This document shows positions 43,774 through 43,998 of a stretch of DNA of 64,000 nucleotides, piece by piece (positions within the stretch are counted from its first letter, which is position 1; each line of letters opens with the position of its first letter). The DNA is from Escherichia phage 92CQ, in the sequence record PV682554.1; one strand, 5' to 3'. The position numbers were made by a program, and so were the translations under genes. The notes beneath the pieces are model-generated. The model searched no databases. It saw nothing but the letters and a program-made list of their open reading frames with translations, and had not been told where the DNA came from.

Positions 43774-43869
43774 ATGCCCTATTTACATTTATTTTTCGGT
43801 ATCTTATTGACAGGATCTTTTTTCTTCTGTATGCTTGTTTCTATTGTAAACCACGTTTTAAAACATTAA
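43774..43869 (+). CDS. small hydrophobic peptide (31 aa), below ORF-track threshold
   Basis: ATG 4 nt after previous stop; predicted transmembrane helix. Confidence 0.4.
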   Translation: MPYLHLFFGILLTGSFFFCMLVSIVNHVLKH

Positions 43870-43878
43870 GGAAACAGC

Positions 43879-43998
43879 ATGAAAATTATTCCCGTACAGT
43901 ATAGCGTAATAAATCCAGCATATGAGGAAGGAAGGAAAACAAGCATGGCTTTATGTTGTATTGCTACTATAGCCATGTTATTATACACTGTGTTTTAA
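43879..43998 (+). CDS. small peptide with hydrophobic C-terminus (39 aa), below ORF-track threshold
   Basis: ATG after AAGGAAACAGC; C-terminal hydrophobic segment. Confidence 0.4.
   Translation: MKIIPVQYSVINPAYEEGRKTSMALCCIATIAMLLYTVF

Follow-up and report, generated by a model that had tools for sequence, protein, structure and literature searches.

Positions 43,774 to 43,998 of Escherichia phage 92CQ hold two short tandem reading frames, and the locus raises the question of whether frames of this size are genes and what their products could do. The window analysed here is a stretch of 64,000 nucleotides (sequence record PV682554.1) from a Justusliebigvirus (phi92-like E. coli myovirus). 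A sequence-only reading of the window had joined eight further frames to this pair and described all ten as missed hydrophobic peptide genes. The frames are named here by their first position (Table 1).

Table 1. Small reading frames of the window and features around the focal pair (TM, transmembrane).
Feature	Positions	Strand	Product and context
ORF 31323	31323-31469	-	48 aa; two hydrophobic segments; Phi92_gp211; phrog_27111
ORF 33433	33433-33606	+	57 aa; two TM segments; Phi92_gp219; phrog_22950
ORF 38162	38162-38257	+	31 aa; single C-terminal TM segment; N-terminal MIKKENS; annotated bas62_0109
Promoter-like site, sigma-70-type	43416-43444	+	TTGACA-17-TAAGAT; 5' of the gp240 homologue, ORF 43774 and ORF 43879; consensus match only
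Phi92_gp240 homologue	43467-43769	+	100 aa; phrog_10737; first cistron of a unit with ORFs 43774 and 43879
ORF 43774	43774-43869	+	31 aa; MPYLHLFFGILLTGSFFFCMLVSIVNHVLKH; one TM segment
ORF 43879	43879-43998	+	39 aa; MKIIPVQYSVINPAYEEGRKTSMALCCIATIAMLLYTVF; N-terminal motif and C-terminal TM helix (tail-anchored layout)
Rival ORF	43953-44102	+	49 aa; annotated in relatives instead of ORF 43879 (bas62_0127, bas60_0132)
Near-consensus promoter	44028-44055	+	TTGACA-16-TAAAAT; for the next gene, 44099-44422
ORF 45514	45514-45618	+	34 aa; single TM segment; phrog_14631 (E=2.4e-22)
ORF 52559	52559-52726	+	55 aa; two TM segments; bas62_0153
ORF 59375	59375-59479	+	34 aa; short hydrophobic N-terminus, then charged helix; Phi92_gp032; phrog_11666
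ORF 60641	60641-60715	+	24 aa; single TM segment; last cistron ahead of a terminator hairpin
ORF 63140	63140-63262	-	40 aa; single TM segment; Phi92_gp042

Coding evidence for the ten frames

All ten frames were intact, with the coordinates and sizes that had been reported, eight on the plus and two on the minus strand. The claimed start signals were likewise present throughout: each frame begins with ATG, seven have a Shine-Dalgarno (SD) sequence (match of at least 4 nt at a spacing of 3-12 nt; AAGGAG for ORFs 43774 and 59375, AAGGA for ORF 43879) and the remaining three are coupled to a stop codon by TAAtATG (52559), TAGATG (60641) or TAATG (63140). The description of nearly all products as single-helix TM proteins was accurate for six frames, which have one hydrophobic segment. 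It failed for ORFs 33433, 52559 and 31323, which have two, and for ORF 59375, the only frame below the classical Kyte-Doolittle (KD) threshold of 1.6 in a 19-residue window that the other nine passed. With a maximum of 1.17 and a hydrophobic stretch made up of its 15 N-terminal residues only, ORF 59375 is not convincing as a TM protein.

By construction, no frame of this set appears in an ORF track with a 60-aa cut-off, and only in this sense were they missed. Eight of them are annotated in relatives (Phi92_gp032, gp042, gp211 and gp219; JohannJBalmer bas62_0109, 0126, 0133 and 0153), and the exact sequences of nine are present in public protein sets as hypothetical proteins. The annotated Justusliebigvirus proteins are identical or at least 90% identical to the eight frames, at the same genomic positions and with no difference of substance; since these are the same genes, the eight were already on record as CDSs in GenBank. 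Nor does their number stand out, as had been suggested: about one quarter of the JohannJBalmer CDSs in a 35-kb stretch are shorter than 60 aa and about one third of those are hydrophobic. Small membrane proteins are described in a review as a considerable share of small proteomes (PMC12648545).

AT- or T-rich, promoter-bearing intergenic DNA could by chance yield hydrophobic open ATG frames, and about 8% of 294 background ORFs (ATG ORFs of 24-59 aa embedded within larger ORFs) are as hydrophobic as the candidates. Nevertheless, we regard chance as an unlikely explanation, which would apply chiefly to ORFs 43774 and 60641. The reading frames are kept in related genomes, and the variation pooled over 7-15 relatives is gene-like: variable sites fall 20:12:48 on the three codon positions (chi-square p=1.5e-6), and 49 of the codon variants are synonymous as against 31 non-synonymous. 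By the same measures, 53 accepted neighbour genes of 60-150 aa gave 421:317:1082 and 980:722, so that the coding signal of the ten frames matches that of accepted genes, and it disappears in shifted frames (21:60 and 14:66). Moreover, an SD match of at least 4 nt together with a KD15 of at least 2.2 was found in 5 of 47 gap ORFs versus 2 of the 294 background ORFs (Fisher p=7e-4), a roughly 30-fold enrichment, with about 0.2-0.3 gap ORFs expected by chance. Five of the ten match PHROG families and four have homologues in other phage genera. Codon signature, enrichment, PHROG families and cross-genus homologues together bear out the proposal that the frames, as a set, are genuine genes whose products are very small hydrophobic proteins. 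ORFs 43879, 45514, 38162 and 52559 are almost certainly genes, and ORFs 33433, 31323, 59375 and 63140 very likely so; conservation of ORFs 31323, 33433 and 59375 was too high for a selection test.

A codon-usage log-likelihood score trained on the long genes of the window did not separate the candidates from spurious ORFs, and it was discarded as a test for TM peptides because the best-supported ORF 52559 scores as badly as ORF 43774. Cluster assignments were unreliable for tiny proteins (the 31-aa peptide fell with the 100-aa protein upstream, the 49-aa ORF with RecF), and exact matches alone were used. ORFs 60641 and 52559 remained matchless even to close relatives in tblastn searches of the phage collection, where the low-complexity filter masks both. 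Antisense ORFs of at least 60 aa over ORFs 33433, 63140 and 43879 were rejected as genes, being interrupted or deprived of their start in relatives; the 111-aa ORF antisense to ORF 63140, for example, is broken in two of them. The antisense ORF over ORF 59375 is open in relatives, whose sequences are nearly identical there, and that over ORF 45514 was aligned by no relative across at least 85% of its length. No tRNA was found in the window. The literature on Stephanstirmvirinae yielded no usable transcriptomic, Ribo-seq or proteomic study.

The focal pair and the NPAY family

The focal pair follows a Phi92_gp240 homologue which shares 37% identity with ukendt_72, the gene directly preceding the ORF 43879 homologue in Phapecoctavirus, and 32% with the upstream gene of the metagenomic phage contig L024. 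An IMG/VR scan with this 100-aa protein returned two near-identical loci only, and GenBank phage records were used instead. The near-consensus promoter of the next gene delimits the focal coding unit on its 3' side; positions 43999-44098 are 100% identical to phi92, and both focal frames carry substitutions.

ORF 43774 starts 7 nt past an AAGGAG that overlaps the stop of the upstream gene. It is intact in all 15 relatives fetched and was found by tblastn in 55 genus records at 90-100% amino acid identity, being annotated in some (bas62_0126, VivaForever CDS0180, ZYD XDO61675) and without annotation in phi92, UAB_1, ALITA and KKP_3264. Several observations would fit a chance frame. Searches found no homologue beyond the genus and no match in PHROGs or Pfam, the substitutions (2 synonymous, 4 non-synonymous) are uninformative and show no coding bias, and the codon-usage score resembles that of spurious ORFs. 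Furthermore, a promoter-like TTGACA-17-TATGCT within the frame (43807-43835) could simply drive ORF 43879, and Phapecoctavirus has a non-coding spacer with promoter and hairpin at the corresponding place between the gp240-like and NPAY genes. However, the perfect AAGGAG and a frame intact in all 55 genus records speak against chance, as does a same-sized TM ORF in this slot in a distant lineage: metagenomic phage contigs L024 and L025 carry a 32-aa TM ORF in the interval between the gp240-like and NPAY-type genes, and its 7 synonymous and 4 non-synonymous differences leave codon position 2 unchanged. We consider ORF 43774 a probable gene, and the weaker member of the pair.

ORF 43879 has an AAGGA 6 nt 5' of its ATG and is intact in 15 of 15 relatives, with both substitutions in the N-terminal motif synonymous. 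Its CDS is present in none of the Justusliebigvirus records examined; the site is bare in phi92 and most records of the genus, and some relatives carry the 49-aa rival ORF. The latter is probably spurious. It is out of frame with ORF 43879, spans the downstream promoter and the SD of the next gene, has no SD of its own, is frameshifted in IMG/VR locus L007 and starts with GTG in A145; in the part that is its own, all 4 changes are non-synonymous (0 synonymous), and no PHROG match was found. It also illustrates that gene callers call spurious hydrophobic ORFs locally, a point that counts for the chance reading of ORF 43774.

The protein encoded by ORF 43879 matches phrog_10979 (“membrane protein”, E=3.3e-8, residues 6-38 of 39), which is placed in the category of moron, auxiliary metabolic gene and host takeover. 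Homologues with 43-50% identity occur in Phapecoctavirus (ukendt_73) and Rosemountvirus (SE13 gp07, “membrane protein”), and identity to family members in other genera is just 36-50%. A profile based on the window sequence and hits, with the alignment headed by the 41-aa SE13 protein, retrieved 26 clusters at E<=1e-3 among 1.84 billion representatives, almost all of 37-41 aa. Y8 and N12 never vary among 25 aligned representatives, and a Pro and a Glu-Gly are near-invariant; the family motif V-E/Q-Y-T/S-x-x-N-P-x-Y-x-E-G-R reads VQYSVINPAYEEGRK in ORF 43879. Residues 21-39 are uncharged with a mean KD of 1.97, a layout found in all aligned members, and the C-terminus of this NPAY family is divergent in sequence and hydrophobic throughout. 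The PHROG 10979 members share length, motif and C-terminal hydrophobic helix with ORF 43879, which in Justusliebigvirus follows an extra 31-aa TM ORF. Members of the family are found in at least five distinct gene neighbourhoods. A constant partner gene was sought, and since the gp240-like gene is common to three lineages only and the downstream genes differ, the NPAY peptide has no obligate partner.

The eight other frames

ORF 45514 is the first cistron of a two-gene unit whose second gene encodes 71 aa (45629-45844), and it lies behind a promoter (45434-45461), a conserved 5' hairpin and the SD GAGGG. Its product is at least 88% identical across Justusliebigvirus, Phapecoctavirus and Vequintavirus, with all changes being swaps among V, I, L, M and A; compared with FV3, there are 5 synonymous and 2 non-synonymous changes, and variable sites are distributed 4:1:9. 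ORF 45514 was also one of the two background ORFs that passed the SD and hydrophobicity screen, having been misfiled by a crude gene model. Homologues of ORF 38162 in Phapecoctavirus have 83-84% amino acid identity, are annotated in several phages and differ in length at the C-terminus (31, 34 or 35 aa), with variable sites at 3:1:7. In phAPEC8 and MRostami, the homologue is the first ORF behind a module of promoter, 5' hairpin and SD, and the layout of these modules at ORFs 45514 and 38162 is identical to that of accepted genes.

The strongest signal of purifying selection in the set belongs to ORF 52559, with 18 synonymous and 2 non-synonymous changes and variable sites at 4:1:15. In addition to its coupled ATG, an alternative GTG start with GGAG on its 5' side exists at 52547, and the gene is annotated in JohannJBalmer, EmilieFrey, AV123 and pEC-M2929. 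ORF 33433, two genes 5' of an FtsH-like ATPase gene, is near-invariant in the genus and shares 26% identity over 46 residues with the two-TM protein phAPEC8_00246. ORF 31323 is coupled at both ends, by TAAATG upstream and a 4-nt overlap downstream. ORF 59375 combines its SD with a TAAATG coupling and shows 2 synonymous changes only among 8 genomes. ORF 63140, between a cytosine methyltransferase gene and a 203-aa gene, is coupled at both ends as well, and in relatives it starts with ATG or GTG and is preceded by a GGAGG SD; because its changes number 0 synonymous and 4 non-synonymous, it offers no evidence of selection.

ORF 60641 is coupled to an upstream 73-aa gene and intact in 8 of 8 relatives. 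It is annotated nowhere and absent from a collection of 15 billion proteins. Its 3 synonymous changes and two conservative hydrophobic swaps (I>V, F>L) argue against a chance frame, and we rate it a candidate gene with the balance slightly in its favour.

Possible roles at the host membrane

In our preferred reading, which we hold to be probable, the ten frames are translated genes for very small (24-57 aa) inner-membrane proteins that serve as accessory host-directed factors of a phi92-like lytic phage. Strong sigma-70-type promoters appear to be arrayed over about 38-47 kb, and ORFs 38162, 43774, 43879 and 45514 lie among them. Between 37.5 and 47.5 kb, 51 promoter-like sites were found versus 30.8 +/- 4.9 in shuffles (consensus matches only), and about 20 near-consensus sites lie on the plus strand. 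From this position, early synthesis by host RNA polymerase would be most likely for these four. The remaining six would be tightly coupled internal cistrons of longer operons; as no promoter excess was found at 49-64 kb, “early” cannot be claimed for ORFs 52559, 59375 and 60641. Each peptide would then insert into the cytoplasmic membrane and could bind or modulate a host envelope protein or block superinfection. In the case of ORF 43879, the working part is likely the conserved 20-residue N-terminal motif, which a C-terminal anchor helix, free to drift in sequence, would hold at the cytoplasmic membrane face; positive residues just before the helix favour an N-in topology. Since no functional annotation was found for any candidate or tested neighbour, the host-modulator role is an analogy and not a result.

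The analogy draws on phage and host systems. T4 Imm and Sp and the SPO1 host-takeover module including gp56 are small membrane proteins for superinfection exclusion or host takeover; like the frames described here, their genes are short, clustered and preceded by several strong early promoters of host type. These proteins are larger (roughly 80-100 aa) and unlike our candidates in sequence, and no PHROG or Pfam match linked the ten frames to characterised exclusion proteins of the T4 Imm/Sp type. The host's own small inner-membrane regulators of the MgrB, AcrZ, SgrT and CydX class are likewise 20-60 aa long, usually with one helix, show hydrophobicity conserved above sequence and act by binding larger membrane proteins (PMC12648545). 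In contrast to the phage-encoded frames, they are host-encoded, stress-regulated and unrelated in sequence, and the mechanism would be shared by analogy only.

The sequence-only reading had suggested holin- or antiholin-like proteins, exclusion factors or small membrane toxins; for the latter two ideas, the results speak neither in favour nor decisively against. As holins, pinholins or antiholins, the peptides would time endolysin release from the membrane, and they share small size with lambda S105 and phage 21 S68, which have one to three TM helices. The one or two TM segments of the candidates, the class-II-like layout of ORFs 33433, 52559 and 31323 and the absence of an established holin in this phage group would be compatible with such a role. 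In BME3, no TM protein adjoins the endolysins, and two distant small proteins (61 and 81 aa) were proposed as class II holins (PMC12210895); they differ in size from all ten frames. Moreover, Pfam-A searches of the ten peptides at E<=1 gave nothing above noise, and the PHROG matches are to “unknown function” or “membrane protein” families, none of them a holin family. We found no adjacent endolysin or spanin: genes flanking six candidates (eight neighbours searched) all belong to PHROGs of unknown function and have no Pfam domain, and a search of the window for a homologue of VivaForever's SleB-like endolysin found none. This screen covered the SleB-like type. A second endolysin is reported for BME3 in the structural module (PMC12210895); larger ORFs of the window with a possible structural role are nearly all confined to its first 12 kb or so, and ORF 31323, the closest candidate, is more than 19 kb away. 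The focal peptides also have no charged cytoplasmic C-terminal tail: ORF 43879 ends inside its TM segment, ORFs 43879, 38162 and 45514 end within or right after the helix, and the tails are just NHVLKH in ORF 43774 and just LKR in ORF 33433. Finally, the sigma-70-type promoters flanking four candidates argue against late timing, without proving it, and are unlike the setting of late lysis cassettes. The holin suggestion is therefore unsupported; lysis timing is not the role that we favour and seems to us improbable.

Alternatively, the peptides could act as type I toxin- or Kil-like membrane toxins, which would contribute to host shut-off through membrane depolarisation, membrane damage or a block to division. 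In size and in having a single hydrophobic helix, they are similar to the inner-membrane peptides Hok, TisB, DinQ and Ibs of 19-50 aa (DinQ: PMC3567139; review: PMC12648545), and strong promoters upstream would give high doses. On the other hand, no toxin family was matched, an Rfam search of the whole window returned no catalogued family of antisense or regulatory RNA or any other, and no strong antisense promoter was seen at the focal pair. A strictly lytic phage requires an energised membrane until late in infection, and the conserved soluble motif of ORF 43879 suggests specific recognition over generic membrane damage. We consider a toxin role unlikely on these grounds.

Least probable, in our view, are leader or coupling cistrons, whose translation would supply the downstream gene with ribosomes or regulate it, with no role for the peptide as such. 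The very tight stop-start coupling at ORFs 31323, 52559, 59375, 60641 and 63140 would suit this explanation, as would the position of ORF 45514 and the ORF 38162 homologues as first cistrons 10 nt ahead of the next gene. However, the amino acid sequence is kept through synonymous change, as in ORF 52559 and, versus a different subfamily, ORF 45514. The motif of ORF 43879 is kept over about 25 diverged clusters whose downstream genes are unrelated, and ORFs 43879 and 60641 are last cistrons with nothing coupled behind them.

Current understanding is unchanged by all this: phages and bacteria are known to encode many small membrane proteins, the finding is ordinary and its annotation value modest. 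Its practical use lies in annotation. The conserved 39-aa gene ORF 43879 is absent from the type genome phi92 and most Justusliebigvirus records, several of which instead carry the probably spurious 49-aa CDS laid across a promoter, and ORF 45514 is missing from the phi92 and ukendt annotation despite conservation in three genera and two subfamilies. Phages of this kind are under development as therapeutic and biocontrol agents, and membrane micro-proteins would make up a sizeable part of their early gene set.

A more speculative extension, to which we give only limited credence, is that the NPAY microprotein is a widespread free-standing effector, an anchored cytoplasmic 20-residue peptide that targets one conserved host inner-membrane-associated protein, and that micro-TM genes travel as cassettes with ORF 43774 as a recent partner. 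Transporters, components of division or of the envelope-stress response and membrane-bound defence effectors would be conceivable targets in that case. The cassettes would consist of promoter, 5' hairpin and peptide gene and move between unrelated coliphage lineages, and ORF 43774 would have been recently born or swapped into a module of gp240-like gene, TM peptide and NPAY peptide. The NPAY peptide is compact, at 39 residues, and two of its positions are invariant in a family of about 25 diverged clusters; it could be used as a testable handle in a search for a host target.

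Ten small ORFs and their prior annotation

The ten small ORFs, named here by their lowest coordinate, are all intact and have the lengths given earlier (eight on the plus and two on the minus strand; see table). The sequence-only reading had credited nearly all of them with ATG starts and ribosome binding sites or stop-start coupling, and this was borne out: all begin with ATG, seven carry a properly spaced Shine-Dalgarno (SD) match of 4 nt or more, with a perfect AAGGAG upstream of c43774 and c59375, and the remaining three show stop-start coupling via TAAtATG, TAGATG or TAATG. 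GGAGG precedes c63140 in its relatives. Kyte-Doolittle analysis gave nine ORFs membrane-spanning potential; the single helix ascribed to nearly all of them holds for six, while c33433, c52559 and c31323 have two segments and the hydrophobic N-terminus of c59375, only 15 residues long, falls below threshold. Our null set, ATG ORFs of 24-59 aa nested within larger ones, numbered 294; equal hydrophobicity was seen in about 8% of them and an SD in about 11%. Both features coincided in 2/294 (one being c45514, misplaced by a crude gene model) versus 5/47 ORFs of inter-gene gaps (p=7e-4), so the observation is real and beyond chance.

The comparison covered the homologous 35 kb of eight genus members and shorter parts of another five, together with segments of Phapecoctavirus, Rosemountvirus and Vequintavirus genomes. 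In the pooled ten ORFs, variable sites fell 20:12:48 on the three codon positions (p=1.5e-6), with 49 synonymous and 31 non-synonymous changes. This resembles 53 accepted neighbouring genes of 60-150 aa (421:317:1082; 980:722) and is lost once the frame is shifted by one (12:48:19; 21:60) or two nucleotides (48:19:12; 14:66). The strongest single signal came from c52559 (18 synonymous versus 2 non-synonymous) and good signals from c45514, c38162 and c43879; c43774 (2, 4) and c63140 (0, 4) had none, and c31323, c33433 and c59375 are almost invariant among relatives, hence leaving no substitution signal to read. Judged from these comparisons, the small ORFs as a set are real genes, mostly for predicted transmembrane proteins. 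Antisense ORFs of at least 60 aa over some candidates are interrupted in relatives and were rejected.

Most of these genes, described earlier as missed, are already known: they are annotated CDSs in relatives, exact-sequence look-up found 9/10 peptides in public protein sets, and five belong to PHROGs (10979, 14631, 11666, 22950 and 27111). Their novelty is low. Calling their number notable was likewise an overstatement, since 23/99 CDSs of phage JohannJBalmer in the same stretch are shorter than 60 aa, seven of them strongly hydrophobic; the number is therefore typical of this genome type, in keeping with the general view that a considerable share of small proteomes consists of small membrane proteins (PMC12648545). 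The useful yield is two annotation corrections for the phi92 group and a clearly delimited, uncharacterised microprotein family, that of c43879.

Small ORFs and associated features, with annotations in related phages
Feature	Position	Strand	Annotation or remark
c31323	31323-31469	-	JohannJBalmer, VivaForever, EC_OE_11; Phi92_gp211
c33433 (57 aa)	33433-33606	+	JohannJBalmer, VivaForever, EC_OE_11; Phi92_gp219
c38162	38162-38257	+	JohannJBalmer
c43774 (31 aa)	43774-43869	+	JohannJBalmer, VivaForever
c43879 (39 aa)	43879-43998	+	
c45514	45514-45618	+	JohannJBalmer, VivaForever, EC_OE_11
c52559	52559-52726	+	JohannJBalmer, VivaForever
c59375	59375-59479	+	JohannJBalmer, VivaForever, EC_OE_11; Phi92_gp032
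c60641	60641-60715	+	
c63140	63140-63262	-	VivaForever, EC_OE_11; Phi92_gp042
Rival 49-aa ORF	43953-44102	+	CDS in several relatives (bas62_0127, bas60_0132, ZYD XDO61676)
Promoter TTGACA-16-TAAAAT	44028-44055		near-consensus
Promoter-like site in c43774	43807-43835		
Promoter/stem-loop modules	38267-46270	+	e.g. 38296-38325, 38652-38680, 41265-41293, 41583-41610, 44453-44483, 44821-44850, 45463-45495, 46241-46268
c45514 and 71-aa gene	45463-45844		FV3 1230-1610
c33433/FtsH-like module	33161-35198		phAPEC8 9510-12145
AT-rich stretch	47526-49237		degenerate repeats, also at 37274-37292

The tandem pair c43774 and c43879

In phi92, the 330 bp separating gp240 from gp241 carry no annotation, and in most genus records no feature lies beneath the tblastn matches of c43879. 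The peptide matches phrog_10979 ('membrane protein', E=3e-8), and homologues with 43-50% identity are annotated in Phapecoctavirus (ukendt_73) and Rosemountvirus (SE13 gp07). Searching 1.84 billion representatives with a profile returned 26 clusters, nearly all of 37-41 aa. Aligned, they share the N-terminal motif V-E-Y-T/S-x-x-N-P-x-Y-x-E-G-R, in which Tyr and Asn are invariant, ahead of a C-terminus that is hydrophobic and varies in sequence. This NPAY family occurs in at least five distinct gene neighbourhoods with unrelated flanking genes and behaves like a free-standing unit. One 44-aa protein, from vB_EcoM_EP57, has a normal motif and a non-hydrophobic, apparently frameshifted C-terminus, to be explained either by pseudogene formation or by an error in sequencing.

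Several relatives carry as a CDS the 49-aa ORF that is out of frame with c43879. This ORF, which lacks an SD, spans a near-consensus promoter and the SD of the next gene. One relative has a frameshift in it and another a GTG start, and in the part unique to it 0 changes are synonymous and 4 non-synonymous. On these grounds we rejected it as a gene; it is probably a recurrent mis-annotation.

For c43774, the less secure member of the pair, we lean towards a gene. Its frame is open in all 55 genus records, its SD is perfect and some relatives annotate it. Two Logan metagenome contigs of a divergent lineage (L024 3636-4120, L025 2115-2599) carry a gp240-like gene, a single-TM ORF of about 32 aa and an NPAY gene, in the order of 43467-43998 in the window. 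Their middle ORF is unrelated in sequence to c43774, a positional analogue, and differs between the contigs by seven synonymous and four conservative changes, none at codon position 2. Against a gene stand the failure to find homologues beyond the genus, the uninformative substitutions, the internal promoter-like site, and the non-coding promoter and hairpin spacer at that position in Phapecoctavirus.

Promoter modules and possible roles

Between about 38 and 47 kb we predicted 51 promoter-like sites versus 30.8 +/- 4.9 in shuffles, about 20 of them near-consensus sigma-70 promoters on the plus strand, and a conserved 5' stem-loop, CATAGGGCGGGAAATGGTTTCCCGCC, lies behind many of these. At least 11 of the roughly 20 are directly followed, at the predicted transcript 5' end, by the GC-rich stem-loop CA[C/T]ATAGGGCGG[G/C]AA..TTCCCGCC. 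The module recurs in the Phapecoctavirus phages phAPEC8, ukendt and MRostami; the stem-loop, which has no Rfam match, may stabilise the mRNA at its 5' end or be bound by a regulator. c45514 and the Phapecoctavirus homologue of c38162 are each the first ORF to follow a module of this kind. Together with the next, 71-aa gene (phrog_5988), c45514 shares about 92% DNA identity with Vequintavirus FV3; the similarity begins about 10 nt before the hairpin, inside the -10 region, and the promoters beyond that point are unrelated. FV3 belongs to another subfamily, and the pattern suggests an exchange of the cassette among coliphage lineages. Just upstream of its c45514 cassette, pEC-M2929-1AR.1 (4120-4321) carries an extra promoter-hairpin-SD cassette, missing from the window, for a different 34-aa TM peptide, MIILTMMCAAVIIPLITLIVSEIDDLLFERSLKK. 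No promoter excess was seen at 49-64 kb, where c52559, c59375 and c60641 are coupled cistrons in internal or terminal position.

The 38-47 kb architecture points to expression by the host polymerase and modular exchange, which is how accessory genes for host interaction, rather than lysis cassettes, are organised. The suggested holin/antiholin role is unsupported: neither candidates nor neighbours have a Pfam domain or informative PHROG, nothing in the window is homologous to the SleB-like endolysin of the relatives, and the holin candidates of the BME3 study (61 and 81 aa) are located elsewhere (PMC12210895). By analogy, these points favour small inner-membrane proteins that would target components of the host envelope or keep other phages out, with c43879 perhaps presenting a conserved cytoplasmic peptide from a membrane anchor. 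The earlier observation is confirmed and its interpretation partly supported.

Two genes downstream of the two-TM c33433 is a gene for an FtsH-like ATPase/protease, and the two may conceivably be linked in function. The same module in phAPEC8 contains the two-TM 00246, 26% identical to c33433, and the hydrophobic 54-aa 00250.

Phage group and irregular records

The 42-46 kb region matches 207 phage records (best identity 96-98%), led by Escherichia phages EC_OE_11, JohannJBalmer and further Justusliebigvirus members, which places the window, by sequence, with Justusliebigvirus, phi92-like myoviruses of the Stephanstirmvirinae. Phapecoctavirus relatives share about 85-90% identity with parts of 31-47 kb and hardly match 47.5-64 kb. 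Four 'UNVERIFIED Campylobacter phage' records (MG065639, MG065645, MG065656 and MG065689; A150, A145, C3 and A110a) share 96-97% identity with this E. coli phage genus, a 942-bp end fragment of Enterococcus phage heks (MT119359.1, 1-942) is 93% identical to the window, and ZYD (PQ110661.1), filed as Vequintavirus, is Justusliebigvirus-like; all are probably mislabelled as to host or taxonomy, or else chimeric assemblies.

The 1.7-kb AT-rich stretch has no ORF of at least 60 aa, tRNA or Rfam match. Its degenerate repeats AAATGATAATCATT resemble the E. coli Fur-box consensus GATAATGATAATCATTATC, and the window contains four matches at up to three mismatches where 0.08 would be expected. A 'repeat_region' is annotated in some relatives, somewhere within stretches matching the window.
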